From a virus, in IMG/VR virus record IMGVR_UViG_3300045988_173726, positions 64,001 to 128,000 of that record: 64,000 nucleotides of DNA; one strand, given 5' to 3'. Shown here in pieces: positions 2,816 through 52,760 of this stretch. Within the stretch, counting starts at the first letter, position 1, and every line of letters starts with the position of its first letter. A model generated the notes under the pieces. The model was not told the origin of the DNA. It searched no databases and worked only from the letters and a program-made list of their open reading frames with translations. Position numbers and translations under genes: made by a program.

Positions 2816-2980
2816 ATGTCAACAGAGGCGTTTACGGCGGTTTGGCTGTTTAATCTTTATATGGCATATAAGGTATACCGTAGTAAGGCATGGCGCATAA
2901 TTATGACCTTGCTTTATTTGATTGCACTTGCGGGTCGCATAACATATGAGCTAAGTGGAGAGGGAATTTTATGGAGATAG
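2816..2980 (+). CDS. small membrane protein (54 aa)
   Basis: ATG 2816 is preceded by AGGAGACGGAGGG. Two hydrophobic segments. The 3' end overlaps the next start. Confidence 0.4.
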   Translation: MSTEAFTAVWLFNLYMAYKVYRSKAWRIIMTLLYLIALAGRITYELSGEGILWR

Positions 2981-3924
2981 CGAGAATCGGGATAGACGGG
3001 GATTTGCACTTAAGTTCCAAGAATCGAGGTGCACATAACGACTATCCGCAGGAGTCACTGATGTATCTAAACTACGCGACCGACATATTTGAGAAGAACG
3101 GGTGTACGCACATCGTGAATCTCGGAGATATAGAGTACGGTCGGTTTGGGACTTTAGAGTATCGTGGCTTGGTAGAGCAGGCGTTTAAGCGTAGGAGAGA
3201 GCTTACGAAGGGGAACTTTTATATCGTCAAGGGAAATCACGACAGCGCGACCTATGGAATGACAGAGTACGAGTTCTACTTAGAGAAAGGTGCGTTTAAG
3301 GGGAGCTGTGATTTAGAGATAGGCAAGATGAAGCTGTTTATGTGTGACTTCGGGGGAGAGGATAGGGAGTTCCAGATAGATAGCGACAGGACGAATATTG
3401 TTTTAGGTCATAACTACTTTATGTTCAAGGACACGCTCATGCCGAACTTCGGAGACCCGATAGTTCTTGACGAGAGGGAGAACTTTTTTGGGGTAGACTA
3501 CATCTTTAGTGGGCATATACATCAAGAGTATGTGTTTAGCGGGATAATTGCGCGGGGTGGAATCGGTCATAAGTGTATTGTGCATCAGTTGCCCTGTTTA
3601 GCGCGTCCAGAGTATTTAGGTGATAGAACGCCAGAGAAGGGCGCGGTAATTGTGCTTCGTGTGTATGACGATAAAGAGCCAGAGGCAGTTAGATTAGAGT
3701 TTCCGTTATTACCGATAGAGCAGTCGTTTAATCTTGCGTTAAAGAATAAGCAGGATGCGGACAGTATGCGAAAGCATGTAGATGTAAGTTCGGTTGTAAA
3801 GGGTTTAGCGGAGTTTGAGCGAGAGATAGGGGACACGGAGAGTTATATCAAAGGTCTAGTTGGGGTAAAGGCAGAGTATAAGGAGAAAGCATTAGCCTTA
3901 TTAAAGGCAGGAGAGGAGGAGTGA
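2971..3924 (+). CDS. Mre11/SbcD-like calcineurin-type metallophosphoesterase
   Basis: Phosphoesterase motifs occur in canonical order: GIDGDLHL, NLGDIEYG, VKGNHD, VLGHNY, FSGHIHQ. Confidence 0.75.
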   Translation: MEIARIGIDGDLHLSSKNRGAHNDYPQESLMYLNYATDIFEKNGCTHIVNLGDIEYGRFGTLEYRGLVEQAFKRRRELTKGNFYIVKGNHDSATYGMTEYEFYLEKGAFKGSCDLEIGKMKLFMCDFGGEDREFQIDSDRTNIVLGHNYFMFKDTLMPNFGDPIVLDERENFFGVDYIFSGHIHQEYVFSGIIARGGIGHKCIVHQLPCLARPEYLGDRTPEKGAVIVLRVYDDKEPEAVRLEFPLLPIEQSFNLALKNKQDADSMRKHVDVSSVVKGLAEFEREIGDTESYIKGLVGVKAEYKEKALALLKAGEEE

Positions 3925-4978: not shown

Positions 4979-5408
4979 GGTAACGGGGCTTGTGGCGGAT
5001 GGTTTTTGGAGTTTTTGGATTTGACTAAGCATATCTAGGAAATCGCTAGGTTTATGTGATAGATTTTTGCAGAGACCTGTCTTACTGCAAATTAGGGTTT
5101 TGTGCGTGGACTTTGGCAAATTTCTGTACTTTCTTAACGATTTTTAGCCCATGTGAAACTGTAGGCGAGGCTTTCCTATTTTATAAACTCTTCAAAATAA
5201 GCCAAATACCATAGCCGATTTTCGGGCAAGACTTATAGCAAAATTGGCTATACCATACACGCAACTTTTTCGAGGTGGTTTTGGGTAAGTCATTATAACT
5301 TCGGGTATTACAACAGGGCAGGCTTTTAGGGGGCGAGGTGGGATTGGGCTTCGCCCTTCCCTCGGGTTTACGAGAGGGCGGCTTCGCCCTTCTTACGGTC
5401 GTTTAGGG

Positions 5409-5437
5409 TAGCCAAAGCCCTAATTTTGTGGTAAAAT
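5409..5437 (+). promoter_or_regulatory. candidate sigma-A type promoter
   Basis: TAGCCA, a 17-nt spacer, then TAAAAT with TG at -15/-14. It sits about 45 nt upstream of the ATG at 5482 and ends a 480-nt non-coding gap. Confidence 0.4.
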
Positions 5438-5481
5438 AGCAGTACAACTTTGAATCAGTGAGTTTTTCTGGAGGGAAAAAG

Positions 5482-5757
5482 ATGCAGGAAATCGACATCG
5501 AGCGAGTAAGAGAGTTTAACAGGGCGTACAAGCAGTTTAAGCAGAGGGAAGTCGAGCTTACGGCAGAGAGAGACATGAATAACAAGGAGATAGACAGGCT
5601 TTGTAAGGAGTTGTCGGAGGAGCTTGGCATCGAGATTACTCGTGAGAACGCGCGAGAGGTCTGTGAGAGGTATGTTACGGAGTTAAACGAGCGTTTAGGA
5701 GTCGGAGAAGCAATCTTTCAGCGTATTAACGCAGAGATTAGCGGTATGCAGGGCTAA
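5482..5757 (+). CDS. small charged helical protein, unknown function
   Basis: ATG 5482 follows GGAGGGAAAAAG. The track start at 5458 has no RBS. Confidence 0.5.
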   Translation: MQEIDIERVREFNRAYKQFKQREVELTAERDMNNKEIDRLCKELSEELGIEITRENAREVCERYVTELNERLGVGEAIFQRINAEISGMQG

Positions 5758-5772
5758 GAGGGGGTAATTTCG

Positions 5773-7094: not shown

Positions 7095-7769
7095 ATGACG
7101 GCGAGCGAGTATATAGAGAAGGTCGAGCAGTTAGAAGCTCTAAACAAAGCGAATGAGCGAAACAGAGAGCAGTTAAAGAAGTCAATCGTTAAGTATAACG
7201 AGCTTCGGGATAAGGCGGCGACCGACCTAGATGTTACGATAAATGCAATCAATATCCTAACGGTTTTGTCGAATAACGCGGTCAATCAGTCGTATAAGTT
7301 TATCGAGGAGAGCGTAAACAGCGCTCTGGCTAAGATATTCGAGAACAGCGAGCGGAAGATTATTCTAAAGGAGAGTGTATTTCGCGGGCAGTATAAGCAG
7401 TTAGAGATAGAGTTGCATGTAGAGGGCGGCAAGGTACGGAGTCTAAAGGCAGACAGCGGGCATGGGTTAATGCAGATAGTGAGTCTGCTTTGCGTATTGT
7501 CGTTAATCGTGATAACGGGGAGTCGGCGTTTACTGGTGCTTGACGAGGTGTTGAGCGGACTAAGTGCAAGTAGTAGGCGTATCATATGCGATGTGCTTGA
7601 AGCGTTTACGGATATAGGGTTTCAGTTTGTGATAAACGAGCATGGCTTAATCCCGAAAGGGAGCAGGGTTGTAAAGCTTGCGGTTTCAAACGGGGTAAGC
7701 GGTGTTTCGGAGACCTATATCGAAGAGAGCGGCGTTTATCTTGACAGTAAGGACAGTGTTGCAGAGTAA
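7095..7769 (+). CDS. SMC/Rad50/SbcC-type ABC ATPase, C-terminal half (signature, Walker B, D-loop, H-loop)
   Basis: About 100 aa of coiled coil come first. Then ADSGHGLMQ (signature-like), LLVLDEVLSGLS (Walker B plus D-loop) and VINEHG (H-loop). There is no Walker A. Confidence 0.65.
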   Translation: MTASEYIEKVEQLEALNKANERNREQLKKSIVKYNELRDKAATDLDVTINAINILTVLSNNAVNQSYKFIEESVNSALAKIFENSERKIILKESVFRGQYKQLEIELHVEGGKVRSLKADSGHGLMQIVSLLCVLSLIVITGSRRLLVLDEVLSGLSASSRRIICDVLEAFTDIGFQFVINEHGLIPKGSRVVKLAVSNGVSGVSETYIEESGVYLDSKDSVAE

Positions 7770-13061: not shown

Positions 13062-13082
13062 GGGTTTAAGCGGGGTTTAGGC

Positions 13083-13110
13083 GGGGTTAGGTAGCGCCTA
13101 GCCCCGTTTC
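13083..13110 (+). terminator. weak candidate terminator
   Basis: 9-bp stem GGGGTTAGG/CCTAGCCCC (one G.U), but only GTTTC follows. Confidence 0.35.
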
Positions 13111-13180
13111 TAGTTTGGGGAGAATAGGGAGTTAGGTGATTTGGAAGTAAATGCGTGGAATAGTACAGAGTTGCTAGTAG

Positions 13181-13240
13181 ATTATAAAGTAAAAGCTAGG
13201 CTATGTCTTTAGACGCACCAGAATGGCTTTTAAGGCGTGT
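13181..13240 (+). repeat. 58-nt direct repeat, copy 1
   Basis: ATTATAAAGTAAAAGCTAGGCTATG...GACGCACCAGAATGGCTTTTAAGG. The 24-nt core is identical to the copy at 13534-13557. Confidence 0.8.
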
Positions 13241-13502
13241 CTAGGTTTAGACGGACGCTTTTACAGGTTTTAGGTTTCTGCTTAGGATTAGGGGGTTTCT
13301 ATCGGCGCAGGACGGCTAAGAAAGGGGAATAGGGGGATTAGATGGGAGAGATAGAAACGGGCAGGGGGAGGGGCTTAAGTCGGCGGGACAGTACAGGGCG
13401 GGTAAGCTCTGGGTTTAGGGGTTTATTGGGCAAGGGGAAGCCCCGTAACGGGAGGAGGCAGTCGCCTAGGCAGGAGAGGGGTTTTGTAAGTTTAACAGTG
13501 AA

Positions 13503-13560
13503 ATTGACAAGTAAAAGATAGACTATGCCCTGTGACGCACCAGAATGGCTTTTAAGGGGC
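13503..13560 (+). repeat. 58-nt direct repeat, copy 2
   Basis: ATTGACAAGTAAAAGATAGACTATG...GACGCACCAGAATGGCTTTTAAGG. I counted about 9 mismatches to copy 1 outside the identical core. Confidence 0.8.
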
Positions 13561-13786
13561 ATAATCGTTTAGGTGTAAAAGTGTATAGAGGTAAGAGACT
13601 TCCCTTTGAAATCCCTAATGAGTCGGCGGTTCAAAACGAGTGAAAACGGACGATAGAGGTGAGCGGGGGCTTGAGGCGGGGCAAAGTGGTATGGGGCTGT
13701 AGAGCGTTTACGGGGTAAACGGGAGATGCGGGTTTAGTGAGGACAAGTGGGGGATTGGGTGGTAAGATAGTGGCTGGAGGGTTTTT

Positions 13787-14569
13787 ATGAAGATTTTAGC
13801 AGGGTTAGTGGCACTAGTTGTCACGGCAGGGTGCATGATAGCGGTTGGGAAGGTGTCGGATAAAATATACCAAAGGAAGCACGCGCTAAAGATAAAGTTT
13901 ATCGCGGGAGCGTTGCGTCTTTTAATCGTAGCGGTGTTTATCTGCGCAGAGATGTATATATTTGGTGGCTCGGACGGGTTAGGCAGCAAGATACTCGGTG
14001 GTTCGACTTTGATTGTGGCAGTTTTAACCTTTACAGCGCAACAAGCATTGGGAAATATCATAAGCGGGTTTTCTATAAGTTTATCGAAGCCTATCGAGGT
14101 CGGACAGAAGGTTAAGATAGTGCAGGGGTCAAATATCATAGCAGAGGGGATAGTAAAGGATATGTCGGTTCGGCATATCATAATAACGACATTTGACGGG
14201 CAGAGCTGTATTGTGCCAAACAGCATAGTAGAGAACAGTGTGATATTGAATACGAATTACGAGAAGGATGTAGGTAATTTTGTAGAGTTTGAGGTGGGTT
14301 ACGGGACAGATATAGAGTTTGCGAAGGCTTTAATCGTGGCAGAGTGTTCAAAAGAGCCTTTAATCATTCGTCCTGTGAAGGTATCCGTAAATCGGTATAC
14401 AGCAAACGGGGTAGTGTTAAAGCTTACGATATGGACAGAGCATTTGGACGACAACTTTGCGATATGCGGGCGGCTTAGGGAGAGTATGTTAAAGCTGTTT
14501 ATAAGTTTCGGGATAGAGTTGCCGTATAATCATGTTACGGTAGGTAGACTAGGCGACACGGAGCGTTAG
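13787..14569 (+). CDS. MscS-family small-conductance mechanosensitive channel
   Basis: N-terminal TM helices, then the MscS core pattern QQALGNIISGFSISLSKPIEVGQKVKI...IVKDMSVRHIIITTFDGQSCIVPNS. Confidence 0.8.
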   Translation: MKILAGLVALVVTAGCMIAVGKVSDKIYQRKHALKIKFIAGALRLLIVAVFICAEMYIFGGSDGLGSKILGGSTLIVAVLTFTAQQALGNIISGFSISLSKPIEVGQKVKIVQGSNIIAEGIVKDMSVRHIIITTFDGQSCIVPNSIVENSVILNTNYEKDVGNFVEFEVGYGTDIEFAKALIVAECSKEPLIIRPVKVSVNRYTANGVVLKLTIWTEHLDDNFAICGRLRESMLKLFISFGIELPYNHVTVGRLGDTER

Positions 14570-15042
14570 AAGGTAAGTTTCTATAGGTACAAGGCTGAAA
14601 GAAAGCAAGTTTTATGGTTAAGCGCGGGGAGATTAGTTTATCGGGGGTTTGCTAGGGTTTTTGTGTCATGTGTTTGGGGCGTAGTTTAGCGGTAGCTTTG
14701 CGGTGGCGTTTGTGTGTGAAAGAAAGTTTAGGTTGGTACAAGTCCAGCGAAACGAAAGTTTAGATATATGGAGAGCGCTAGAAAGGAAGTTTAGGATTTA
14801 GAGCGTGACACGGGGTTTGCCCTTAGACGGGTTGGCTTTCCCTTATTTGGGACACAAGTTTAAGGGATGTAGGCGGGCTTTACGAGTAACAGAGTGCTGT
14901 CTTGGGAATCGACTGGAGGTGGCTTGAGGCTGTGACACATGCTGGGAACAGGTGATTTTAGAAGCAAGAAAGTAAACTTCCTAGGAACTTCTGCGTGGAA
15001 AGGTTGGTTTATCTGAATAAGAAAGCTTCTAAAGCAAGTTTA

Positions 15043-15072
15043 GGGCTTACGGGAAATCCGTAAGCCCTTTTT
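15043..15072 (+). terminator. intrinsic terminator inside the repeat field
   Basis: Perfect 10-bp stem GGGCTTACGG/CCGTAAGCCC, 5-nt loop, then TTTTT. Confidence 0.75.
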
Positions 15073-16030
15073 AATGTTGGGGTTTTGGGCAGAGAGTTAG
15101 GCGGGTGACGGGGTTGGGAAGGTAAGTTTCTTGTCGATTTCGGGGCTAAAAAGAAAGTTTACGGGGTTCGCGGGATGGCGGGTTTCCATTGAGCTACGCT
15201 TCTAAAAAGCAAGTTTCCCCGAAGAGTTTGATTGTGAAAAGAAAGTTCCGCTGGGTGGATGGGGTTTCGTTGAAAGTAAGTTTCCTCGTAAATTCTGGCA
15301 GGAGAAAGGAAGTTTCTGGTGATGGCGGGGCGCTGGGTGTTTATAAGGTTAGGCTAAAAGTTGACAGATAAACTAGGGTAATGCCTTGTAATAGTTATAA
15401 AGGCAATTCTGGTAGGTGTGCTGGTTTGCTGGATTGGTTTGCGATTACGGTTGTTTGTTTTGTAATCCGTGCATAAATTCAAGTTTCTTGAGGACTTGCT
15501 TGGATAGAAAGTAAGTTTAAGTAATACCTAGCTGTAATTGAAGAAAAATCAGTAAATGAGCTTTGAGTTAGAAAGCAAGTTTCTCGGTATACTTTTAGTT
15601 CAAAAAGGAAGTTTATAAACGGACGAGTATCCGACAAGTTTTCGATTTGATTTTAACGGGAAAATCTAGGGGGTTGAGGCTTTGTTTATCAGTTAAACAG
15701 TTGGACTCTTGTCATTTTGAAGTTAGAAAGTAAGTTTCAGAGATACCTATAGAAGCGAAAAGTAAGCTTCTAGTATTTAAGAATTGGCTGGTTGTTGAGG
15801 GAAAACTGCTTTGATACTTGAGAATTTCTTTGCGCTATTGAAAATCGTTAGAAAGTAAGTTTCAAGTGATACTTTGGCAGTCGAAAGGAAGTTTCCGTTT
15901 TTAGCTATGCAAAGCGGATTTTCCGTGTCGTTGAAACTTTCTTTCCTGGCTGGTTTTGTGATTTCGTTAGAAAGTAAGTTTCCCCTTAAACATCAGTGTT
16001 AGAAAGTAAGTTTCAGATATACCAAACGAC

Positions 16031-16059
16031 TTGAAAGAAATCGCAAAATATGGTATAGT
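16031..16059 (+). promoter_or_regulatory. candidate sigma-A type promoter
   Basis: TTGAAA, a 17-nt spacer, then TATAGT with TGG immediately upstream (extended -10). Confidence 0.5.
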
Positions 16060-16327
16060 TGAGGTGCAGTTAGAAGAAAGTAAGTTTCCGAGATACCTGT
16101 ATACGAAGAAAGGAAGTTTCAGCGAATCAAAGAAAAGCTATCTAGTATCTTGAAAGTAAGTTTCGCCTTTCCGAGCGTTTTTCCTTGGAAAGCTAAAGTG
16201 CGCTACACCTTGATGTTCTGCGAGCTTTCTTTTAATCAGAGTGGATTCCTTGTATTGGAGCGAGTACACAGGTATTTCGTCCTATAAATTTTATTACTAA
16301 TTTTATGCTTATTTGGAGGTATGAGTT

Positions 16328-17362
16328 ATGAGGCTAGTTAAGATTCTGTCTTTTGCGTGCGCTGTTTCGCTTTTAGCGGCAAGTGCTACAGCTTGTGGTA
16401 AAGGGAAGGTTTCCGTAAACGCGGAAAACAGCAAAGAAGCTGTGAAGCCTGCGAATGTCGAGATAAAGGAGGCTCTTAATAAGATGTATGAGAGCGGTGG
16501 AATGACTTTGACGCGGGTAGATAAGAACACGACAATTACGACAATCTATGACAATTCTGGACAGGCATATGTGCAGTCTGGATATACGGCTGGGGTTTAT
16601 CTCTTAGGAGATAAGCTTTTGACCGTGAAAGAGGGCGTTGACGGGGGGAGTCCTAAGTTTGTTTTGACAGATGACATTTCGCCTGCGCGTATGGTAGAGG
16701 TAGCGTGTGATTTTGCAGATAAGGGCGGTGCAAGTTTAACAGAGACTACGGAAACGGGAAAAGAGCCTAAGGATACTTCGGAAAGGTCGTTTGAAATAGC
16801 GGTTTCTGGCAGTAATATCTACGAGCTTTATAAGTCCGTGAGTAAGAGCTACGCAGAGAATATTTTGCCTCTATACAATTACAAAAATTCGGACGAGTTT
16901 GTGGCCGGTGATAAATTCGTTGTCGGAATTTCTACTACAGAGAATAATTTGAGCCTCGACATGTATATAGTGTCGCATAACGCTCCGAATGAGCGGGTGC
17001 ATATCGTAGGGTTTGATGGCTATGTGCCGCTGGGCGGCTGGTCGCTTGACGGGTCGATTAATAGTGAGATGGATTTAGGCGACTACGATGGCATTAAGGA
17101 AAAATTACAGGCAATGCAGAATGACCTGTCGGAAAAGATACAGAAATATGTTGCGGAGCATGAGGAAGAGTTGCTTGTGAGCGAGGCTACAGCAGAAACA
17201 AATGTAGGTAAGGAGACTGTAGACGGTAGCGAGAGCGTAGAGGAGAGTAGCATAGAAAGCGGGTCGGAAGAGAGCGCCGAGAGCAGTTTATCTGAAAGCT
17301 TGAAAAGCACGGAAGAAAGCACAGAAGTATCCGATACAAGTGAGCAGGAGTCGGGAAATTGA
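16328..17362 (+). CDS. putative lipoprotein with an acidic Ser/Glu-rich C-terminus
   Basis: Signal peptide MRLVKILSFACAVSLLAASATAC, with Cys in a lipobox-like context. RBS GGAGG. Confidence 0.6.
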   Translation: MRLVKILSFACAVSLLAASATACGKGKVSVNAENSKEAVKPANVEIKEALNKMYESGGMTLTRVDKNTTITTIYDNSGQAYVQSGYTAGVYLLGDKLLTVKEGVDGGSPKFVLTDDISPARMVEVACDFADKGGASLTETTETGKEPKDTSERSFEIAVSGSNIYELYKSVSKSYAENILPLYNYKNSDEFVAGDKFVVGISTTENNLSLDMYIVSHNAPNERVHIVGFDGYVPLGGWSLDGSINSEMDLGDYDGIKEKLQAMQNDLSEKIQKYVAEHEEELLVSEATAETNVGKETVDGSESVEESSIESGSEESAESSLSESLKSTEESTEVSDTSEQESGN

Positions 17363-17401
17363 GCTATAGAGACGCGCGGTATCGCATAATAGGTGCTAGA
17401 T

Positions 17402-18052
17402 ATGGATTTAGTGACGGCTCTTCAAATGTACGGGTATCACTCGGTAGAAGAGGTTAAGATTGAGATAACTACAAGGGTTTATAGGCGGCTTGTAAAAGAG
17501 AACCATCCAGATAATACGGAGAGTCCCAGATATTTGGTTGGGGATATTACGGATGCGCGGGGGTTGCTAAACAGCGTAGCAGACGGTAGCTATTCGTCTA
17601 ACAGTAGCTTCGCAAACGCTCAAAGAAATAGCGGATTTAACAAGAGAAGTTATAATAGTCAGCCTTTTACGCGGGAGAATGATTTTAGAAGCGGAAGTAA
17701 TGTTAGATATGGCATGCCCTATCCCGTGAAGTTAGAGGGTTTGCAAGAACTGTTTCAGCCTGGTCGTGTCTACTATGGGGACGATAACTATTTTGTTCTT
17801 GATAGAGGCGTTCGGCGCGTTGTTTATGTGATGTTTAAGGCACAGGTAACGCAGGGTGGGGAGAAAGTAGAATACACTTTCCCGAAGAAGGTTTCGGAGA
17901 GTAATAAGTATCAGCTGTCGTTATCGCTTGAAAAGGCAATGGGTTCGGCAGTCATTGAGGTTTATGGAAGAAGATTTGAGGTTTCCAGTAGTGTCCGTAG
18001 CCTTAAAGTGGGATTTAATGGAGTAACTATTGTGCTTGATATAATGTTTTGA
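17402..18052 (+). CDS. J-domain (DnaJ-like) protein
   Basis: N-terminal ...EEVKIEITTRVYRRLVKENHPDN carries the HPD tripeptide in a J-domain helix II/III context. The remainder is unrecognised. Confidence 0.6.
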   Translation: MDLVTALQMYGYHSVEEVKIEITTRVYRRLVKENHPDNTESPRYLVGDITDARGLLNSVADGSYSSNSSFANAQRNSGFNKRSYNSQPFTRENDFRSGSNVRYGMPYPVKLEGLQELFQPGRVYYGDDNYFVLDRGVRRVVYVMFKAQVTQGGEKVEYTFPKKVSESNKYQLSLSLEKAMGSAVIEVYGRRFEVSSSVRSLKVGFNGVTIVLDIMF

Positions 18053-18063
18053 CGGAGGAAGAT

Positions 18064-18570
18064 ATGATTAAGAAAAGTGGAGAAAACGGTTCACCTGCTA
18101 GAAAGACGCTTCATGTTCTGGTTGGTAATTACGGTGAGTTTCATAGAATCTTGCAAGAGGGCGTTGTTTATACGCTTTCCCCGCGCGGAGGCTACGAGAT
18201 AGATATGTCTGTAAACGGAGTGTTGTATAGCACTTTTGACGCAAGGAGTATAAGCCTTGCAGAGATAGTGTCTACGATGCCCGTTCGGGATAGGCATGTA
18301 GCGGTAGAGTTTGTGGGGGTCTTGTCAAAGCTTTGCACGATAGATGTTTTGTCGGAAATTATGGCAAAAAAGTATAGACTGGTTGTAACAGGCGGGGACG
18401 CGCTGTCTGGAATTTACGATTTGCTTTGTAAGACCTATGGTGAATCTGGTTTTAGTGTGTCTATGGACGACTTAAAGACAGTGTGCAGGAGTAGGGCAGA
18501 TTTTGTAGGGGCGTATCGTGCATTTGCGGGAGTAAACGGTGTTATGGGAAATCGCGGGATGCGGGGCTGA
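18064..18570 (+). CDS. hypothetical protein
   Basis: ATG 18064 lies 5 nt after GGAGG. The start region overlaps the end of the upstream gene. Confidence 0.5.
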   Translation: MIKKSGENGSPARKTLHVLVGNYGEFHRILQEGVVYTLSPRGGYEIDMSVNGVLYSTFDARSISLAEIVSTMPVRDRHVAVEFVGVLSKLCTIDVLSEIMAKKYRLVVTGGDALSGIYDLLCKTYGESGFSVSMDDLKTVCRSRADFVGAYRAFAGVNGVMGNRGMRG

Positions 18571-18783
18571 TTGACAGGGTGTTTATTGGACAAATCTAAT
18601 GGTTAGTTTGTAATTGCCATTAGATTTAAGGCTTCTGTGTTAGGTTTTGGGCGCTTCGGTGTGCGAGACAAGTGACAGAGATGTCGCGACAGGTTTATCT
18701 GGGTATGCTTGGTTTGATAGTTGAACCTTGCATTTTGACTAGTAAGCTAATTTGTAGCTAGACCTGTGAAAATTCAAAGCGTT

Positions 18784-18822
18784 GCGGGGAGCGGATAGAA
18801 GAAATCCGTTTCCCGCTTTTTA
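18784..18822 (+). terminator. intrinsic terminator
   Basis: 13-bp imperfect stem GCGGGGAGCGGAT/ATCCGTTTCCCGC followed by TTTTT. Confidence 0.7.
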
Positions 18823-19191
18823 TTTCTAATCTTTTGTGTGTAATCTTTGTGGTCTTGGAAGAATATCCTAGACCCTATTAGAATTAAGCAGTACACATGG
18901 CTTTCTTGCTTATAAATTTAGGCTTGCTTTGCCGCGCCTTTTGGCTGTTTATCTGCTGATTTATTTTGCGTCTTTTCGTGTAGAAAATGGCGTGCAATTT
19001 TGCGCGATTTCTAGGATTTTATAGGGCTTTATTTTTCAAAATTCCGTGCGAGGGCGTGCAGAGCGGGTTTTCCTAGGGGCGCGGGAAAATTTTTGGCAGG
19101 GGCAAAGGCAAAATCCTGTCCAAAAGAAACAAGTACACTTAAGGAGTCGCAATTTGATAAAGTTCTCCGTTTATTCGGAAAAGGAGTTATT

Positions 19192-21047: not shown

Positions 21048-21245
21048 ATGGGAGAGAATAATCGCCTTAAACTTGCGAGTAAGCCAAAGCCCGAACAGTT
21101 TTTCACGATTTCTGGTCGGGATAAGTTGCTGGAATCTACGGGTTATGTAGTTTTTCGGGACGGATTAACTTTTGCAGAGTATCTGGACGAAGATGACGGT
21201 TCTATCTATTTAATGAGGTGTGAGTTACGCTATGCGGCTAAATGA
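21048..21245 (+). CDS. hypothetical small protein
   Basis: ATG follows GGGGAG. 65 aa. Confidence 0.45.
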   Translation: MGENNRLKLASKPKPEQFFTISGRDKLLESTGYVVFRDGLTFAEYLDEDDGSIYLMRCELRYAAK

Positions 21246-21663
21246 GTATTGGAGACGGCTTAATCGTAGCGGGCTTCTTTGCTATCGTTGGACAGGTTTT
21301 GCGGAGTTTGCGGCTTGGTCGGAAGCGAACGGCTATCGTCCTTGGAGATTGCTCCATCGTAAAGACAAGAATGCGCTTTATAGCCCAGAAAACTGTTTCT
21401 GGGCTAGTTCCGTCCCAAGGAGTGAACCTGTTGTAAAGTGCGCAAGCTATGAAAAGACGGTTCGTATGCTCGGGCTTTATGACGTGCTGTTAGCAGAGAT
21501 TACAGAGGATGCAAAGCGAGCAGAGGCATGTTTAGAGGCTCTGTCCGAATCGGATTGGGTGAGTAGCAAAGATACTGCGCTTAAGCTTAAGAAAGAGGTG
21601 CAGTTGCTTATGCGGCGGGTTTCAGAAATCCGTTTAACTGCCCTTTATGACAAAGAGAAATAA
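21232..21663 (+). CDS. hypothetical protein, possibly DNA-binding
   Basis: FAEFAAWSEANGYRPWRLLHRKDKNALYSPENCFWA resembles the F..F..W....GY......R.D....Y.P.NC.W pattern of phage AP2/HNH-associated DNA-binding modules. This is a weak assignment. Confidence 0.4.
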   Translation: MRLNEYWRRLNRSGLLCYRWTGFAEFAAWSEANGYRPWRLLHRKDKNALYSPENCFWASSVPRSEPVVKCASYEKTVRMLGLYDVLLAEITEDAKRAEACLEALSESDWVSSKDTALKLKKEVQLLMRRVSEIRLTALYDKEK

Positions 21664-21701: not shown

Positions 21702-22376
21702 ATGCGTGGCAGACCTACAAAGTATCTTACAAATGTTCTTGAGAATCTAAAGACGGCTATCTATAACTACTACAACTTAAGCACGGGAGAGGTTAGAGAA
21801 GTAGGCTTAAACGAGGTACCACTTAGCAGAGAGCGGGGGGCTTTGCTTGGGGATTTAATTGATTTGTGCTTAAACACGAATTACTTGAGTCTTGAGGCAA
21901 GGGTTTATCTGCGTCACGGGCTTGTGCGCCTTCCGATGTTAAGCGAGGTCTTGCTAAATGAAGAGGGAGTTCGGTCGAGTTATAACGACTGTCGGAGCAA
22001 GGCTAGATATGCTTGTACGAAGTTGCGAGAGGATTTCGGTGAGAAAGCGGTTGTTCTAATTTTAGACCAGAGAGAACCTGACTTGAGCGAGCTGGCTGAC
22101 AAGGTTTGCAAGGTTCGTGAGAAGTATTGCAAAATTTCGGGTCTTAGTGACTACCTGTTAGATTTCGATAAAATAACGGCTACGCCTGTCGTAAAAGGCA
22201 ACGGAGAGATTACGCGGGTAGTCGGTCTTATGGGGGCTTACAGAAAAGAGACAGTAGACAAGTTTATCGGGATGAACAAGGAGACACTTGGTTTTATCAA
22301 GTATTTGATGAGCAGTGCTTATTATCGCGAGAAGTATCGTGATATAGTGCGTTTAATCGAGGGGAGCGAGCCGTGA
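21702..22376 (+). CDS. hypothetical protein
   Basis: RBS GGGGTGAG. Begins MRGRPTKY. No family recognised. Confidence 0.5.
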   Translation: MRGRPTKYLTNVLENLKTAIYNYYNLSTGEVREVGLNEVPLSRERGALLGDLIDLCLNTNYLSLEARVYLRHGLVRLPMLSEVLLNEEGVRSSYNDCRSKARYACTKLREDFGEKAVVLILDQREPDLSELADKVCKVREKYCKISGLSDYLLDFDKITATPVVKGNGEITRVVGLMGAYRKETVDKFIGMNKETLGFIKYLMSSAYYREKYRDIVRLIEGSEP

Positions 22377-23629
22377 TAGAGATAAAGATTAGACAAGACT
22401 TAAAGATTACGCAGTTGTCCTCAAGGAGTGCAAAGAGTTTGCAGGCTATCATAAAGGCGGTAGAGGCGCATAAGGGGGAGACAGTTAATCTAAACTTCTA
22501 TCAAGTCGTTGTGACGAATGTCTGGAAGTGTGTGGAGTTTGGGAATCTGCTTTGCAAGTACGATGTGCGGATGGAGTTTTACAGTGCGCCGGAAGCGGCG
22601 AAGAGCGCAAAGGTGTTGCTTAAGCTTGGGGGTTTACCGGAGGATAGAGTTGTAAATCATGTGGTTGTCTCAAAGGCTGTAGAGGTTAAGCCCGCGCTTC
22701 GTGACGCATTAAAGGGCATGGCAGAGAAGATGCGTGTTATTGACGGGGAGCTTTGCCTTAAGTTAAGTGAGTGCGGGTTTCGGCAGATAGGGAATATGCG
22801 AACGCTTGAGTCGGTGGTAGAGGTTATAGCCTATCGAAAGACGCAGGAGGATTGCGCAGGCGTAGACAAGTTTATGCTTGATGTTACAGGCATTTCGATG
22901 GTGCAGGACGTGTATACTCGTATGGATGAGTTTGAAAGACAGGTCATTGCGCTCGGGTTTACGCCTCGGTACGCCGCAGAGGGTGAATACGGGGAGGCGC
23001 TGTTAAACGCGATTCATAATACGCTTGCATTTTCAAGGAGTCGTGATTTAAGCCCGAAAGAGCGTGTGGAGTTGTTAAACAGGAAGTTACCTGTAAATTC
23101 GGCGGTGCTGTTTATGACTTTCTGTAATGGGCAGTCTAGGTCAAATTCGCAGAGCATTTGTATAGATAACGAGCCTACTACGAGTAGACCCGCTATTTAT
23201 CTCGGCAGTTCGGAAGAGAAGAACGGGTATTCGCTAAAGTTTATGGTATTTCCGATAGAGGATAACTTTGTAGTGAGTGAGGATTACGCCTTAGATAACG
23301 AGGGGGAGTATCTGGGTAATATAAAGTCGTATGTAATGCCGATAGCCTTAGAGGATATAGGGTTTGGAGCAGACGATGTAGAGTTTTTCGGGAAGAAGTA
23401 TTTTGTAGCTTTGCCGATAGCGGATTCGGCAGGAGAGCCGGAGTTATATAACTTGTATGTGACAGACGGGGATAGGCTTACGACTCGGCAAGTATCGGTT
23501 GCGGAGTATATGAAAGCGGTGTTTGACGACAGAGGAGTGGTTTATGACGTGCCACTACTGAATCGCTGTATCGAGGAGAGCAACAGAAATATCGAGATAT
23601 GGAAGAATCGGAAAGATAGGAGCAAGTAA
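22373..23629 (+). CDS. hypothetical protein (418 aa)
   Basis: GTG start overlaps the upstream stop. RBS GAGGGGAG. Confidence 0.5.
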   Translation: MIEIKIRQDLKITQLSSRSAKSLQAIIKAVEAHKGETVNLNFYQVVVTNVWKCVEFGNLLCKYDVRMEFYSAPEAAKSAKVLLKLGGLPEDRVVNHVVVSKAVEVKPALRDALKGMAEKMRVIDGELCLKLSECGFRQIGNMRTLESVVEVIAYRKTQEDCAGVDKFMLDVTGISMVQDVYTRMDEFERQVIALGFTPRYAAEGEYGEALLNAIHNTLAFSRSRDLSPKERVELLNRKLPVNSAVLFMTFCNGQSRSNSQSICIDNEPTTSRPAIYLGSSEEKNGYSLKFMVFPIEDNFVVSEDYALDNEGEYLGNIKSYVMPIALEDIGFGADDVEFFGKKYFVALPIADSAGEPELYNLYVTDGDRLTTRQVSVAEYMKAVFDDRGVVYDVPLLNRCIEESNRNIEIWKNRKDRSK

Positions 23630-23764
23630 ACTCAAGTTTCTCTGTTAGAGAGCAGTATAAACTCAAGTTTCGGCTATATGCGGTTGCGGCTCTGCTTCGG
23701 CGGTAACAGGGGTCTTGTCCCGCAGAAAATCTGTGGAAAGAGAAAGAAAGTTTCGGGGTATACC
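23626..23764 (+). promoter_or_regulatory. three AAGTTTC-core motif copies upstream of the helicase gene
   Basis: GTAAACTCAAGTTTC at 23626. ATAAACTCAAGTTTC at 23657, 31 nt later. GAAAGAGAAAGAAAGTTTCGGGGTATACC at 23736-23764, abutting the ATG. Confidence 0.55.
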
Positions 23765-25918
23765 ATGATAGATAAAAGTAAGTTGATTGCAGACATTGAG
23801 CGTGTAAAAGGAATTAAGCATAGTGTCGAGCAACTGGCTGTTTTGAATAGCACGGGCGGTCTGGTGATTATTGCGGGTGCTGGTTCGGGTAAGACAAGCA
23901 CGATTACGGAGTTAGCCTATATCCGAGCAAAGACAGGGGAATTAGAGCCGTCTAAAACTCTTTGTGCGACTTACAGTAAGAGCGGTGCGCATGAGATGCA
24001 GAGGAAGTTTAAGCGTCTTTGTTCGGAGCTTGGGGACGATTTTGAATTGAGCTTTAAGACTCTGCATAGTTGCTATTATCAAATCCTTCGGTATCTGGGC
24101 TATCCGATAAACATTTGTAGTGAGGGCAGGGCGATGGGGTATCTTCGGCAAGCCCTAAAGGACTGCGGCATCAAGAGTAAGGACAAGGAGCTTGTAGAAT
24201 ATCTCAAAAACTTGTTTTCCTATCAGATAAACAAGGCGATGAGCTATAATGACTTGAGTCAGCACTATCAGTTTGACGAGAAGCGGATTAGTTTAGAGGA
24301 CTATAAGCGCGTAAACACGCAGTATAAGCAGTTAAAGGCGAACGACAGTGTTATGGAGTACGATGACATGCAGTTTATGGTTTACTGCATATTCTGCGGG
24401 GTTTCGGGTGCAGAGTTGACACAGAAAGTGTTGTCGTTCTGTAGGAGTCAGTGGAAGTATTTTATTCTTGACGAATTTCAAGATACAAGCACAATCCAGT
24501 ATAAGATTTTGCGGTGTATGTGCCCCACAGAGAACAGTGCAAATCTAATCGTAATCGGGGACGATGAGCAGGCAATTTACACTTGGAGAGGAACTGACCC
24601 TAAGATTATCCTAGAGGATGTGCAAGTAGACTATCGCTTGAGTTTATATGTTTTGTCCACAAACTATCGTTGCAAGTCAAATATCGTAAAGTTTGCGTTT
24701 AATTCCGTGAAGAATCTAAGCTATCGGCAGAAGAAGGAGCTTAATGCGAACACAGACGGCGGGAGTATTAAGATTCTTTCTAGTGATAACACACTTTACG
24801 GCATAAGCGAAGCGGTCTTAAAGTATGTCAAAGAGCGCATTGCGAGTGGAGAGAAAGCAGACAAAATAGCGGTACTAGTTAGAAATAACTACGAGGCTTG
24901 CGTTCTAAACGCAATGCTTTATGAGAACGGCATCTTTACGGATACGACAAGTGAGAGTATGAGGTTTACGCGGCAGGGGTTGTATGCCGATGTAAAGAGT
25001 GCGTTTGAGCTTCTTAGTAACACTTATAACGGGGACAGGGTTTCTGAGGTGCTTTGGAAGTATGTCGTATTTCTTGGTGCAAACGGAGCGAAGGTCATCG
25101 GGAGCATTATGAACGACTTCGGGGTAAGCCTTACGGAAGCTCTGGGGATTGCGCTAAGTTTAACTGCCTACAGTAGCAAAGTAGGCAAAGTGGGGGAGGA
25201 AATCCCGAGAGGATATAGAGATACGCTTGCGGCTAAGATTTACGCGATGGGTAGAGACACGGTATGGGGTCTGTATCAACTATATTCCCTTCTTTCGGCA
25301 AAGATTAGTAACGAGGACAAGTTTAGTGGTCTTATGGCTATTCTTTACGAGGGAGTTCGGTATATTTACGGAACTCCGGAGCGAGAAAGGCTTTTAAGCG
25401 GGTATTTATCGTATGTTAGGAGTTTATTTGGGCGGTTTAATACGATAGATAGGCTTAAGGAGTATTTTTCAGCGCTATATCAGTACGAGACAGCAGTAGA
25501 TAAGGGGTCAGACTGCATAAATGTCTATACCTATCATGGTGCAAAAGGTCTTGAGTGGGATACGGTAATTTTAATGTGCTGTGACAGCCTAGCCTTGCCG
25601 GAGAGTAGAAGCATTCGGGATATGGTAAACAGGGGTTACGAGTCCAAGGATATAGTGGAGTATATAGACTGCGAGCGGCGGTTATACTATGTTGGATGCA
25701 CGAGAGCTAAAGAGAGGCTTGTGATAGCTTGTGATAACAGTGAGCCGTCCCAGTTTCTTATGGAGTCTTTGGGATTAAACGATGCATACAGGGACAGTAA
25801 CCTTGAGCTTATTGAGGATTCAGACTTTAATTTAGCGGCGAAGGAGAGATTGCCAAGGTATTTGTCAGTCGTTGAAAGTTGGAGGAAGTCGGATGAAGAG
25901 GATAGCGAATCTGTTTGA
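23765..25918 (+). CDS. UvrD/Rep/PcrA-family superfamily-1 DNA helicase
   Basis: IIAGAGSGKTST (motif I), FILDEFQDTS (II), VIGDDEQAIYTWRG (III), LSTNYRC, YTYHGAKGLEWDTVIL (V), YYVGCTRAKERL (VI). I prefer the ATG at 23765; the track start at 23678 adds 29 residues that overlap the motif repeats. Confidence 0.85.
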   Translation: MIDKSKLIADIERVKGIKHSVEQLAVLNSTGGLVIIAGAGSGKTSTITELAYIRAKTGELEPSKTLCATYSKSGAHEMQRKFKRLCSELGDDFELSFKTLHSCYYQILRYLGYPINICSEGRAMGYLRQALKDCGIKSKDKELVEYLKNLFSYQINKAMSYNDLSQHYQFDEKRISLEDYKRVNTQYKQLKANDSVMEYDDMQFMVYCIFCGVSGAELTQKVLSFCRSQWKYFILDEFQDTSTIQYKILRCMCPTENSANLIVIGDDEQAIYTWRGTDPKIILEDVQVDYRLSLYVLSTNYRCKSNIVKFAFNSVKNLSYRQKKELNANTDGGSIKILSSDNTLYGISEAVLKYVKERIASGEKADKIAVLVRNNYEACVLNAMLYENGIFTDTTSESMRFTRQGLYADVKSAFELLSNTYNGDRVSEVLWKYVVFLGANGAKVIGSIMNDFGVSLTEALGIALSLTAYSSKVGKVGEEIPRGYRDTLAAKIYAMGRDTVWGLYQLYSLLSAKISNEDKFSGLMAILYEGVRYIYGTPERERLLSGYLSYVRSLFGRFNTIDRLKEYFSALYQYETAVDKGSDCINVYTYHGAKGLEWDTVILMCCDSLALPESRSIRDMVNRGYESKDIVEYIDCERRLYYVGCTRAKERLVIACDNSEPSQFLMESLGLNDAYRDSNLELIEDSDFNLAAKERLPRYLSVVESWRKSDEEDSESV

Positions 25919-31202: not shown

Positions 31203-31480
31203 CTAGCAGTTTCCAACAATGTAGAAGAAACAGGAATTATTCTCGACTTTATACATTTTATTTAGTAAGCAGTCCTATACAGATGTATTCAACGCAAGAC
31301 AGTTGAGCATCTCCCTTTAGGGCTAAGTTTATCAGAAGCCTTGACAACAATTTTCATTGTGTGGCTACGGTTGAAATGAGATGAGTTAGGGTGGAATAGG
31401 TTAACCGTAAGACCTTGAGTTGCAAAACTCTAAAATTGAGCTAGAGTATGGATTTTTCAAGTTTCGTATTTCTAGTTACG
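31203..31480 (+). mobile_element. ORF-less mini copy (left-end block fused to right-end block) of the TnpB-like element
   Basis: 31203-31268 matches the left-end blocks at 31511 and 36309 (CAGTTTCCAACAATG..GGAATTATT..). 31269-31480 matches the post-stop blocks of both full copies and ends at the same CTAGTTACGG. Confidence 0.7.
31269..31480 (+). ncRNA. orphan copy of the omega-RNA-like structured block
   Basis: About 212 nt, homologous to 32966-33173 and 37748-37963. Carries the invariant TCAAC-GCAAGACA-GTTGA hairpin. Confidence 0.45.
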
Positions 31481-31618
31481 GTATCAGTCGAAGGACAAGT
31501 AGGAAGAGTAATCGACAGTTTCTAACAATGCGGAAGAAGCAGGAATTATTTCTCGATTTTCTATGTTGTTTTAGTTAGCTAAGGTTATTTCATTAGGGGC
31601 GCAGGGTGGTGAGGTGTA

Positions 31619-32950: not shown

Positions 32951-33173
32951 GGAGCATCTAACAATCAATCCTATACAGATGTATTCAACGCAAGACAGTT
33001 GAGCATTTCCCTGTAGGATTAAGTTTACTAGAAACTCTGATAACAATTCTCATTGTGTGGCTACGGTCGAAATGGAATGAGTCTGGATGGAATAGGTTAG
33101 CCGTAAGACCTTGGGTTGGAAAACTCTAAAATTGAGCTAGAAATGTGGATTTCTTAGCTATTTTCTAGTTACG
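32951..33173 (+). ncRNA. omega-RNA-like conserved block downstream of TnpB-like copy 1
   Basis: Conserved in three copies and ends abruptly at CTAGTTACGG. Hairpins show compensatory differences between copies. Confidence 0.5.
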
Positions 33174-33346
33174 GCTAACGCCTGCGGAGCGAGAAGAGGT
33201 TTTACGGGGCTTAGAAGCATAAAGCCCCGTAGACGCACGAGACGGCGTTTTACGGGCGGTTAGAGGTTTAAGCCTAAGGAATAGCCTAGGGGCAGTTAGG
33301 CGGCTTGGAGAGGCGTGTAGCGCGTCAGAGAGGGATGAGGGACGAT

Positions 33347-33649
33347 ATGGGAGAGCAGAATAGAAATCCGCTTGAGGGGTTACTTGAGGTACGGCGTGAG
33401 GTAAGAAAGCTTTGTCCAGAGCTTTTTCCGAAAGAGGAGCGAGTAGCCTACGGGGTAGTAGGCGAGACAGGAGAGCCTTCGGTGGCGCTTCAAAAGTTTA
33501 ATAAGCTATTGGCGGCACAGACGGGCAGTAAGACAGGAAAGAAGCGAAAGACAGCGGTAAAAGTCCCAGCAAAGCAAGGAAAGGTCGGAGACGGCGAATT
33601 TACGGGAACGAGTTTATTTGAGGCGATGAAACGAGGGGGAGTGCTATGA
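33347..33649 (+). CDS. small basic hypothetical protein
   Basis: ATG 33347 follows GAGGGA. The stop overlaps the next ATG (ATGA). Confidence 0.5.
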   Translation: MGEQNRNPLEGLLEVRREVRKLCPELFPKEERVAYGVVGETGEPSVALQKFNKLLAAQTGSKTGKKRKTAVKVPAKQGKVGDGEFTGTSLFEAMKRGGVL

Positions 33650-34065: not shown

Positions 34066-34083
34066 GAGAATGGGGGTTTTGTT

Positions 34084-34494: not shown

Positions 34495-34516
34495 GAAAAG
34501 TTAGCGGGGGAGGTTT

Positions 34517-34933: not shown

Positions 34934-34946
34934 TTTGGGGTGGTCT

Positions 34947-35402: not shown

Positions 35403-35415
35403 GGGGTTTGTGGAT

Positions 35416-35838: not shown

Positions 35839-35861
35839 TTCTGTGTTTAGGAGGTGAGATT

Positions 35862-37963: not shown

Positions 37964-37967
37964 TTCA

Positions 37968-52730: not shown

Positions 52731-52760
52731 GTGGAAGTAGGTACTTAGAGTTTCTAACAG

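Follow-up and report, generated by a model that had tools for sequence, protein, structure and literature searches.

A conserved array of phased direct repeats in a jumbo-phage-like genome, possibly a displaced centromere-like site of a ParM-like module

What purpose is served by a 1.6 kb field that encodes no evident protein, yet is filled with copies of one short motif? Such a field (14569-16164) lies between an MscS-like gene and a lipoprotein gene in the 64,000-nucleotide stretch of DNA from an uncultured, jumbo-phage-like virus analysed here (the window). The statement of the initial annotation that it holds no credible ORF stands under any genetic code: with TAG, TGA or TAA recoded, no frame longer than 504 nt appears on the plus strand. 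The longest ORF in the array, which is also the only gene predicted there by a gene caller, encodes 60 aa from a TTG start (15189-15371), and it was rejected as a gene because a 1-nt indel breaks the frame in all relatives. Neither tRNAs nor Rfam families were found in the array of the window or in those of its relatives. CRISPR arrays have repeats of 24-40 nt and a regular periodicity, whereas the boxes described below measure 13-17 nt and the spacing from unit to unit is irregular (44-249 nt).

The motif, which we call the box, has the consensus tA-(G/A)AAAG-N-AAGTTT-(C/A). Allowing at most one mismatch, GAAAGNAAGTTTM matches 29 times in the 64 kb window against 1.26 expected and a shuffle maximum of 4, an enrichment far enough above the shuffled background for the motif field to be considered real; 22 of the 29 matches fall within 14569-16164, 21 of these on the plus strand. 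A position weight matrix derived from the array finds 26 plus-strand boxes of at least 9 bits in the same interval, a count which, for the array itself, involves circularity; the matrix plays no part in the simple pattern AAAG-N-AAGTTT, which has 19 of its 20 plus-strand matches in the array. Eleven of the 24 spacings between successive boxes are 31-32 nt, a number reached by none of 20000 random placements, and a repeat search recovered eight copies of a 51-nt composite unit, box-N19-box, which together bear out the earlier description of long and short forms paired about 30 nt apart. From pair to pair the window shows no helical phasing (Rayleigh p=0.6). Nine of 25 boxes have a further element, TAC, 6-7 nt 3' of them (binomial p about 1e-9).

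The array is divided by an intrinsic terminator (plus strand, 15042-15073) with a 12-bp stem, a GAAA loop and a T run; it is strong, and the relatives that cover it all keep the stem and loop unaltered, the T run being one T shorter in three. Upstream lies sub-array 1 (14569-15042, plus strand), with box starts at 14569, 14601, 14718, 14750, 14781, 14968 (a weak copy) and 15030; here GGTACAAG, the form that the TAC element takes in the upstream half, occurs 5-6 nt 3' of the box in two units. The first of these boxes, at 14569, overlaps the stop codon of the MscS-like gene. Sub-array 2a (15118-15316, plus strand) consists of three pairs, 15118/15149, 15205/15237 and 15272/15304, each 31-32 nt apart and lacking the TAC element. 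Sub-array 2b (15503-16164, plus strand) holds the long forms, in which a box is followed by N4-5 and (G/T/A)ATAC(C/T), at 15503, 15567, 15722, 15847, 15998 and 16068, together with partner boxes 32 nt 3' at 15603, 15758, 15883 and 16108 and a single box at 16152. Of the seven long forms listed initially, those at 15567, 15722, 15847 and 15998 agree with that description, whereas the other three deviate: the copy at 15503 starts with GATAGA and ends in TTTA, that at 16068 carries a 3-nt insertion (GTTAGA-AGA-AAG), and that at 15966 has no ATAC. The sole inverted box was found as reported, at 15933-15945, where GAAAGAAAGTTTC reads on the minus strand; all other boxes of the array are co-oriented with transcription. 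Within the array a sigma-70-like promoter, TTGAAA-17-TGgTATAGT (plus strand, 16031-16059), is kept in relatives; its -35 element overlaps a decayed partner box, and, were the promoter in use, the lipoprotein gene would have a 5' leader containing the boxes at 16076, 16108 and 16152. Neither this promoter nor the terminator had been listed in the initial annotation.

Comparison with relatives demonstrates that the boxes are under selection. Across eight distinct related genomes, 95.8% of box core columns are invariant, compared with 64.6% in non-box intergenic DNA (permutation p=2e-4), and the 80-84% of invariant columns in the flanking coding sequences also lie below the box cores. Purifying selection on the boxes is stronger than on the flanking genes, while the spacers drift, and the N position of the box varies as freely as the spacers do. 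Boxes lacking the TAC element are as conserved as those carrying it (95.6% versus 96.3%), and the box therefore works on its own.

Box arrays are also present in two more distant lineages, with GC contents of about 32% and about 24%; we refer to the lineage of the window as A and to these as B and C. The box sequence and the 32-bp period persist among lineages without other nucleotide similarity. Lineage B has 5-8 boxes in its array and lineage C 24-25, the latter arranged in tandem units of about 140 bp with three boxes each and flanked on both sides by terminators; pairs or triplets phased at 32 bp are common to all three. Long-range helical phasing was discarded as a general feature, there being none in the window and that of lineage C being explained by its tandem 140-bp units. 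A block encoding the lipoprotein, a J-domain-like protein with an HPD motif and a 173-aa protein (16328-18570, plus strand) adjoins the array in A, B and C, with the array upstream of the block in A and downstream of it in B and C. Beyond these lineages, blastn against known phages in INPHARED gave no match, and the pair pattern met only scattered singletons in bacterial genomes, with no prophage or host operator among them. Nothing relevant to the motif was found in the literature.

Strong boxes outside the array are confined to two sites in 81 kb encoding more than 70 genes. The first is a mini-array at the start of a UvrD-like helicase gene (23629-23786, plus strand), present in lineage A only and absent in lineage B; AAACTCAAGTTTC occurs in it twice, at 23629 and 23661, 32 nt apart, and the likely start codon, at 23765, falls inside a full unit, GAAAGAAAGTTTC-GGGG-TATACC-ATG...AAAAGTAAGTTGA (23742/23774). 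The second, GTAGAAATCAAGTTTC-CA-TATACC (52760-52783, plus strand), lies 30 nt 3' of a terminator and about 105-120 nt upstream of a gene encoding a ParM-family actin-like protein. This arrangement recurs: in four lineages, the ParM-like proteins of which are only 47-53% identical, co-oriented boxes follow a terminator 85-120 nt upstream of the ParM-like gene (A, 52763; B, L030 421/452; C, L190 1387/1418; D, L181 2485/2602/2677), accompanied by the TA-N3-T hexamers TACCGT, TACAGT, TAGCTT and TACTTT. By analogy, this is the position that parC has in type II partition loci. In A, B and C alike the array precedes the ParM-like gene on the same strand, by 37 kb, 22 kb and about 30 kb, respectively.

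The ParM-like protein (385 aa; 52883-54040, plus strand) matches the Pfam families ALP_N and MreB-like_C, and phmmer searches of PDB sequences returned the pCBH ParM (E=1.4e-8) and a Bt ParM fusion (3.6e-12); by tblastn it is 27% identical to the ParM/StbA of a B. thuringiensis plasmid, and among known phages it gave weak StbB matches only. In the slot that parR would occupy downstream of it lies a gene for a 733-aa protein (54058-56259, plus strand); proteins in this slot range from 733 to 846 aa. At the N-terminus of the 733-aa protein is a basic region of about 35 aa, conserved as ML..V..V..SS.IRL....YRA; the protein further contains an acidic linker and a coiled coil, and its C-terminal domain is MinD/ParA-like, though the P-loop is degenerate. 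Homologues fall into 97 clusters at at least 95% identity, many of them on contigs of 250-270 kb, the word-indexed searches having returned near-identical proteins only.

By its position the 733-aa protein is a candidate adaptor. Pfam and PDB searches gave no RHH or ParR match to it and no match of any kind to its N-terminus, no DNA-binding domain was detected in it, and the AlphaFold model of the N-terminus (pLDDT 43) is unusable. Its N-terminal domain was one of the binders put forward initially and survives as a positional candidate only, whereas the RHH-like proteins named beside it fared less well: the one at 21232 is an HNH endonuclease (21220-21663), and those at 21702 and 57867 (21702-22376 and 57837-58643) match no family. 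The model of a further protein, 18061-18570, is likewise unusable, pLDDT being 40-43 over the two models. Lineages B and C encode an HTH-looking protein of 195-199 aa that ends just before the array; it is an unlikely binder, since the box is the same in the window and yet no homologue of the protein is detectable there. As stated initially, the window does not allow a binder to be assigned.

Selection, 32-bp phasing and the parC-like position make cooperative protein-binding sites the best-supported class for these boxes; the iteron-like or centromere-like character proposed initially is retained to that extent, an iteron origin having no specific support. Since the same box stands in the promoter region of the ParM-like gene, we read the boxes as parC-type sites of a segregation or positioning module, and the array quite possibly, though we hold this tentatively, as an amplified and displaced centromere-like site for the DNA-binding adaptor of that module. 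Each box would be a 13-bp pseudo-palindrome, GAAA-GNAAG-TTTC, read by a single sequence-specific DNA-binding protein of the element. As 32 bp corresponds to three helical turns, the partner boxes of a pair (or of the triplets in a relative) would face the same side of the DNA, and cooperative binding would be possible. The one to three boxes at the ParM-like promoter, flanking the -10-like TA-N3-T, would mediate autoregulation, and a centromere amplified to high avidity would be formed by the 1.6 kb array, which is co-oriented with the ParM-like gene and 22-37 kb upstream of it; the adaptor may load on the array and be captured by ParM-like filaments, so that replicated genomes are moved or anchored. 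Enrichment and phasing far beyond chance speak for the centromere-like reading, and the position of the lineage C array between terminators suits a DNA site shielded from read-through. Against it stand the distance of the array from the ParM-like gene and the lack of a detectable DNA-binding domain in the 733-aa protein; no ParR-like RHH protein was found, and box units of the window are, beyond the pairs, not in mutual helical phase. No terminator separates sub-array 1 from the MscS-like gene, in the 3' region of which it lies, and partition is not an obvious need of a lytic jumbo phage. Two further observations are equally compatible with promoters: a conserved -10-like element accompanies about a third of the boxes at a fixed distance, and all boxes but one point in the direction of transcription.

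Comparison with characterised systems helps to define how far the likeness extends. The parC site of plasmid R1 consists of two sets of five iterons (PMC2241845). As in R1 ParMRC, a ParM-family ATPase is encoded here and its gene is preceded by short direct repeats flanking a core promoter element, with cooperative adaptor binding predicted; only the one to three boxes at the ParM-like gene lie over the promoter in this way. Known parC sites abut parM, and the centromere of a type II locus is contiguous with the parMR operon, whereas the main array of about 25 boxes is tens of kilobases distant from the ParM-like gene. The R1 iterons are contiguous and of 11 bp, unlike 13-bp boxes in 32-bp phased pairs; ParR is a small RHH protein encoded downstream of parM, where here the large protein with coiled coil and MinD-like domain is found; and R1 is a plasmid, whereas the present element is jumbo-phage-like. 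A precedent, phage-borne and actin-like, is offered by prophage CGP3, in which AlpC works with the adaptor AlpA, a protein binding 24 alpS repeats; the role proposed for that system is the positioning of phage DNA during replication, not plasmid partition (PMC4446434). The number of short repeats bound by its adaptor is similar to that of the array; however, alpS is a loose TTAAnnG motif inside the alpAC promoter region, the adaptor gene precedes alpC, and there is no separate distant array. The sopC site of F, 12 x 43 bp (PMC3177203), is like the array in being long, gene-free, unidirectional and unique in its replicon, with sites for one protein (here a predicted one). It differs in its regular 43-bp tandem repeats with a 16-bp inverted repeat, in place of irregularly spaced pairs, and in its location beside sopAB, and no ParB-, SopB- or Rep-like protein is recognisable here.

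A more specific version of the centromere-like reading is somewhat unlikely: that gut jumbo phages possess a previously undescribed segregation or positioning system composed of a ParM-like actin, a giant adaptor and a displaced 25-box "super-centromere," with the operon autoregulated through its one to three boxes. The giant adaptor would combine a small N-terminal DNA-binding domain, the coiled coil and a pseudo-MinD domain. If this is true, a super-centromere of 25 phased boxes stands tens of kilobases from the ParM-like operon.

Among the alternatives, a battery of phage-specific promoters, already suggested in the initial annotation, survives best, and we consider it unlikely. The long form would then be bipartite, the box placed near -30 and the -10 element supplied by TAC or TA-N3-T, and be read by a phage sigma-like factor, an activator-modified host RNA polymerase or a phage RNA polymerase; numerous transcripts, short or reading through, would arise from the array, and the promoters of the ParM-like and helicase genes would be of the same class. 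The TAC does stand at a fixed distance, 6-7 nt after array boxes and 4 nt at the ParM-like gene, and is invariant in relatives; TA-N3-T fits at the ParM-like gene in four of four lineages, where the box comes just 3' of a terminator and, in the window, no other promoter candidate intervenes before the gene; and every box context is co-oriented with genes. However, the two-thirds of boxes that have no -10-like element are conserved to the same degree, a partner box would be positioned around +3 to +15, and in lineage C three boxes follow one another every 32 bp. Two strong sites outside the array are too few for a promoter class. The TATACC of the helicase unit directly abuts the start codon and hence is not that gene's promoter. 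Different genes lie downstream of the arrays in different lineages, and the lineage C array is closed by a terminator. A sigma-70 scan was not enriched and did not flag the long forms, and no sigma-like protein was detected, the only hint being a weak HTH_16 match in 40636-41229. The late promoters of SPO1, CGTTAGA(N17-19)GATATT, are read by gp33/gp34 (PMC3601020), and the long form of the window, CGTTAGA...GATAC(T/C), superficially resembles them, with two blocks in the same order. Identity with these promoters fails on both spacing and conservation: the distance is 14-15 nt, B and C conserve the intervening box and not GTTAGA, and no gp34-like sigma was detected. Were the promoter reading true, the array would be the recognition sequence of a new phage transcription factor.

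That the array is an iteron-type replication origin, a copy-control locus or a sink titrating a global regulator strikes us as quite unlikely. An initiator or regulator would bind the boxes, and the array would either nucleate replication or buffer the free level of a protein by which the ParM-like and helicase genes are repressed as well. Direct repeats in phased pairs, in an array unique in the genome, would suit such a role, as would the fall in GC to 33-38% in 15400-16300 and the box unit bracketing the start of a UvrD-like helicase gene. The array always adjoins the block encoding the J-domain-like protein, and P1 RepA and lambda are established cases in which chaperones remodel iteron initiators; plasmid pSM19035 provides a case in which one protein is both regulator and centromere binder at several repeat clusters. 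The iteron version of the initial proposal nevertheless gains no specific support from the sequence: GC skew has no sign change and cumulative skew is monotonic, with no inflection across the region; the array has no DnaA box, matches in the whole window being at chance level; and neighbouring ORFs match no Rep-like family, a search by which divergent initiators may be missed. With a lowest GC of 33%, there is no strongly AT-rich unwinding element, and iterons typically recur at roughly 22 bp, against 32 bp here. The HTH-looking protein next to the arrays of B and C speaks for this reading, but the lack of a detectable homologue in the window counts against it here as well, and the helicase-associated unit is not shared by lineage B.

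Action at the level of RNA is very unlikely. Transcribed GAAAGNAAGUUUC repeats would bind an RNA-binding protein, as a CsrB-like sponge or in translational control, with the leader copies at the ParM-like, lipoprotein and helicase genes as regulated targets. In a genome transcribed from one strand, all but one of the boxes are sense-oriented, and their locations are plausible as leaders or 3' UTRs; at the helicase gene, the RBS and AUG are enclosed by two boxes 32 nt apart; the arrays of B and C come shortly after a terminator, with a sigma-70-like match ahead of the main box run; and in C a terminator follows the array, as for a discrete ncRNA gene. Such sigma-70-like matches, however, are at chance level in these AT-rich relatives. 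CsrB-type RNAs display their motif in conserved hairpins, whereas the array folds no better than shuffled sequences (z -0.7 and -1.8), the only local hairpin involving a box is lost in relatives, a 4-bp GAAA/UUUC stem shows no compensatory change, and the position that would form GGA is the variable N of the box. Recognition of DNA on one helical face is the more usual setting for a linear 12-nt motif whose central base is free and whose 32-nt period is kept exactly from lineage to lineage. That the boxes are functionless, the remains of a decaying tandem duplication or a persisting selfish short repeat, is effectively refuted by the observed conservation pattern: arrays clearly grow by duplication of units such as the 140-bp ones of lineage C and their spacers drift freely, but the boxes are more conserved than neighbouring coding sequence, keep sequence and period across lineages 20 points of GC apart, and recur at the ParM-like promoter in four lineages.

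To our knowledge, cytoskeletal positioning of phage DNA is known from few systems, such as the PhuZ tubulin of nucleus-forming phages and AlpC of prophage CGP3, and the present case bears on how jumbo phages of gut Firmicutes organise their genomes during replication. The lineage is common in public metagenomes, and the combination of a conserved cis-element, a ParM-family motor and a candidate adaptor makes the centromere-like reading a hypothesis directly testable from cloned parts. The most conserved protein between the lineages lies elsewhere in the window: it is a 224-aa protein (7095-7769), which was considered as a site-specific binder and set aside, as it corresponds to the C-terminal half of an SMC-like ATPase.

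The box array at 14569-16164, between an MscS-like gene and a lipoprotein gene, is a real, strongly selected and lineage-wide cis-element, and it probably consists of protein-binding DNA sites of some kind. With at most one mismatch allowed, GAAAGNAAGTTTM has 29 matches in the window against 1.26 expected; 22 of these fall within 14569-16164, 21 of them on the + strand, bearing out both the motif enrichment and the single inverted copy (15933-15945) of the initial annotation. In register, the 13-bp box reads tA-(G/A)AAAG-N-AAGTTT-(C/A), with AA, G, AAG and TT showing no variation in 24 copies and the sixth position free. Successive boxes are spaced by 31-32 nt in 11 of 24 cases, a figure reached in none of 20000 random placements, and a repeat search returned eight copies of a 51-nt composite unit. 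Nine of 25 boxes carry a TAC 5-6 nt to their 3' side (p ~1e-9), in the context GATACC/T or TATACC/T in the downstream half of the array and GGTACAAG in the upstream half. The earlier list of such long forms holds overall, with three corrections: the copy at 15966 lacks ATAC, that at 15503 begins GATAGA, and that at 16068 has a 3-nt insertion. Since this insertion keeps the box-to-ATAC distance and not the GTTAGA-to-ATAC distance, the box is the anchored element. The field is also gene-free, as had been claimed: the gene caller's only ORF there (60 aa, 15189-15371) is frame-shifted in all relatives, and reassigning stop codons opened no credible frame in the array. A strong terminator (15042-15073), with stem and loop identical in relatives, and a sigma-70-like promoter with an extended -10 (16031-16059) lie inside the array.

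Selection was assessed in an alignment of the array region from eight distinct genomes of lineage A, the window's own. Invariant columns make up 95.8% of the box core (permutation p=2e-4), 54% at the free N of the box, 63.7% of within-pair spacers, 64.6% of non-box intergenic DNA and 80-84% of flanking coding sequence. Conservation is equal for boxes with (96.3%) and without (95.6%) the TAC element, and thus the constrained 13-bp box functions on its own. The TAC elements are themselves invariant in this alignment; there is a second constraint, on a short element at fixed distance in about one third of units, and the DNA between is free, which speaks against the spacers yielding RNAs or peptides whose sequence matters.

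Pattern scans located this box in lineages whose DNA otherwise shows no nucleotide similarity to the window. Lineage B (GC ~32%, contigs of 180-233 kb) has an array of 5-8 boxes, with pairs 31 nt apart, directly 3' of a terminator. Lineage C (GC 21-27%, contigs up to 295 kb) has 24-25 boxes on a single strand; two or three boxes follow one another at exactly 32 nt, and these runs form tandem units of ~140 bp each. They sit in a gene desert of at least 5-6 kb (7468-12468 of contig L105; 1-6166 of L099), unusually large for a phage, in which we found no ORF of at least 70 aa, no tRNA and no Rfam match; one terminator lies upstream of the desert and another immediately 3' of the array. The bacterial genomes scanned for the box yielded chance singletons only. 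One three-gene block adjoins the array in A, B and C; the array precedes it in A and follows it in B and C. The block in the window (16328-18570) encodes a lipoprotein with signal peptide and lipobox, a J-domain-like protein (HPD motif, 17393-18052) and a 173-aa protein. In B and C this last gene gives way to one for an HTH-like protein (195-199 aa) that looks unrelated. The place of the B and C arrays corresponds in the window to a T-rich, gene-poor gap (18571-19092) with a terminator near 18779-18815.

Across the 81 kb formed by the window and its extensions, just two sites outside the array have strong boxes. At one, found in lineage A only, a mini-array sits where the UvrD-like helicase gene begins: two half-degenerate boxes 32 nt apart precede a full unit, and the probable start codon (23765) lies between the two boxes of that unit. 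The other, GTAGAAATCAAGTTTC-CA-TATACC, lies 30 nt past a terminator and ~105-120 nt upstream of a gene (52883-54040, + strand) for a 385-aa protein, which by sequence is a ParM-family actin: it matches Pfam ALP_N and MreB-like_C, hits PDB ParM proteins at 1e-8 to 4e-12, and is 27% identical to Bacillus thuringiensis plasmid ParM/StbA. A box precedes each homologue found, in lineages A-D, across which the ParM-like proteins share just 47-53% identity: as a pair at -115 and -84 in B, as a pair at -114 and -83 in C, with the array on the same contig, and as three boxes in D, the proximal at ~-105. The route to lineage D was the protein encoded downstream of the ParM-like gene, whose N-terminus has a 36%-identical homologue there. 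In all four lineages TA(C/G)NNT comes 4 nt after the proximal box and, where boxes are paired, the partner starts ~9 nt past this hexamer, so that the boxes flank a -10-like element. The parC-flanked parMR promoter of plasmid R1 has -35 and -10 elements. The boxes flanking a -10-like element here recall R1, in which parC iterons flank the parMR promoter (PMC2241845). The order array, 22-37 kb, ParM-like gene, all on one strand, is common to A, B and C.

The best-supported role for the array, which we put forward tentatively, is that of a centromere-like site, displaced and amplified, that would serve a phage ParM-type system. A putative element-encoded, sequence-specific DNA-binding protein would recognise the pseudo-palindromic box (GAAA-N5-TTTC, with an asymmetric conserved centre) and bind cooperatively to boxes three helical turns apart; binding at the ParM-like promoter would give autoregulation, and the array would form a high-avidity loading site captured by ParM-like filaments. 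There is a phage precedent: in prophage CGP3, 24 alpS repeats are bound by the adaptor AlpA, which links DNA to AlpC filaments, aiding phage DNA replication (PMC4446434). Among known systems, the array comes functionally closest to alpS and to the parC site in ParMRC loci. The few boxes at the ParM-like promoter have the position expected of parC; the array is not placed in that class because it does not adjoin the operon and no ParR-like protein was found. The gene after the ParM-like gene (54058-56259) encodes a 733-aa protein named 'Mrp family chromosome partitioning ATPase' by JGI, which is conserved in A, B and D (the lineages examined; 733-846 aa), most strongly in its first ~35 residues (ML..V..V..SS.IRL....YRA). 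A basic N-terminal motif is followed by an acidic linker, a ~250-aa coiled coil and, at the C-terminus, a MinD/ParA-like domain whose Walker A/P-loop is degenerate (GGSSSGIT); just one other protein cluster had the N-terminal domain in a HMMER search of the full library. As this N-terminus has no match in Pfam or PDB and a single-sequence AlphaFold model was unusable, we infer a candidate adaptor purely from gene position.

We keep alive the reading of the array as a battery of promoters, to which the conserved -10-like element at fixed distance, the uniform box orientation and the box between terminator and ParM-like gene all lend weight. Boxes without that element are nevertheless conserved equally, lineage C has 32-bp box triplets, sites elsewhere in the genome are few, the helicase unit abuts the start codon, and the genes 3' of the arrays differ between lineages. 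The resemblance of the long forms to the SPO1 late promoter consensus, CGTTAGA(N17-19)GATATT (PMC3601020), breaks down in spacing (14-15 nt versus N17-19) and because GTTAGA is not conserved in lineages B and C. The repeats and the adjoining J-domain gene are in keeping with an iteron origin or a regulator sink, but we see no skew switch, DnaA boxes, unwinding element or recognisable initiator. An RNA sponge is compatible with the strand bias of the boxes and the terminators around the lineage C array, but has no structural support, and the motif behaves as a DNA site.

The source element is uncultured and jumbo-phage-like. Within the 64-kb window the + strand carries every credible ORF of at least 100 aa, each 1-kb interval has a GC skew between +0.2 and +0.45, the cumulative skew does not turn, and cytosine makes up just 15.8% of bases. 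Recognised genes encode SbcCD-like proteins, a UvrD-like helicase, RecJ, an HNH endonuclease, a 5'-3' exonuclease, a LytR-CpsA-Psr protein and the ParM-like actin, besides three TnpB genes with their RNAs; a family A DNA polymerase lies just outside. There are six close relatives in IMG/VR (contigs of 140-268 kb) and many more in ENA and Logan assemblies (~250-270 kb); the deposited phage genomes searched held no similar sequence.

An 850-nt gap lies between the SbcC-like (AAA_23/SMC_N, 781-2118) and SbcD-like (Metallophos, 2971-3924) genes. Further along, a distinct 224-aa ORF (7095-7769) resembles the C-terminal half of an SMC-type ATPase (VLDEVLSGLS) and has the highest protein conservation between lineages A and B (55-58% identity). 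Two paralogous 443-aa ORFs (31619-32950 and 36401-37732) lie amid three IS605-orfB-I RNAs (179-203 bits; 31272-31485, 32968-33178 and 37750-37967), one of them upstream of the first ORF, and we read both as TnpB-like from these flanking RNAs. A RAGATH-18 RNA (57713-57793) comes after a third TnpB gene (56489-57676; OrfB_IS605 and a Cas12f1-like TNB domain). Given these several copies and RNAs in the window, TnpB elements have proliferated within the phage-like genome. A run of small ORFs (33305-36257; 114-155 aa), without family matches, looks like tandem paralogues because adjacent pairs, such as 33646-34065 and 34084-34494 and their neighbours, share 64-nt and 46-nt repeats. Three gene-poor gaps of 520-850 nt lie at 2119-2970, 4979-5772 and 18571-19092, the first two with called ORFs of just 40-91 aa. 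Upstream of the MscS-like gene, another of 725 nt (13062-13786; called ORF just 59 aa) holds two 64-nt direct repeats (13187-13250 and 13509-13572), 80% identical and each containing an inverted repeat, which may be small RNA genes or regulatory sites.
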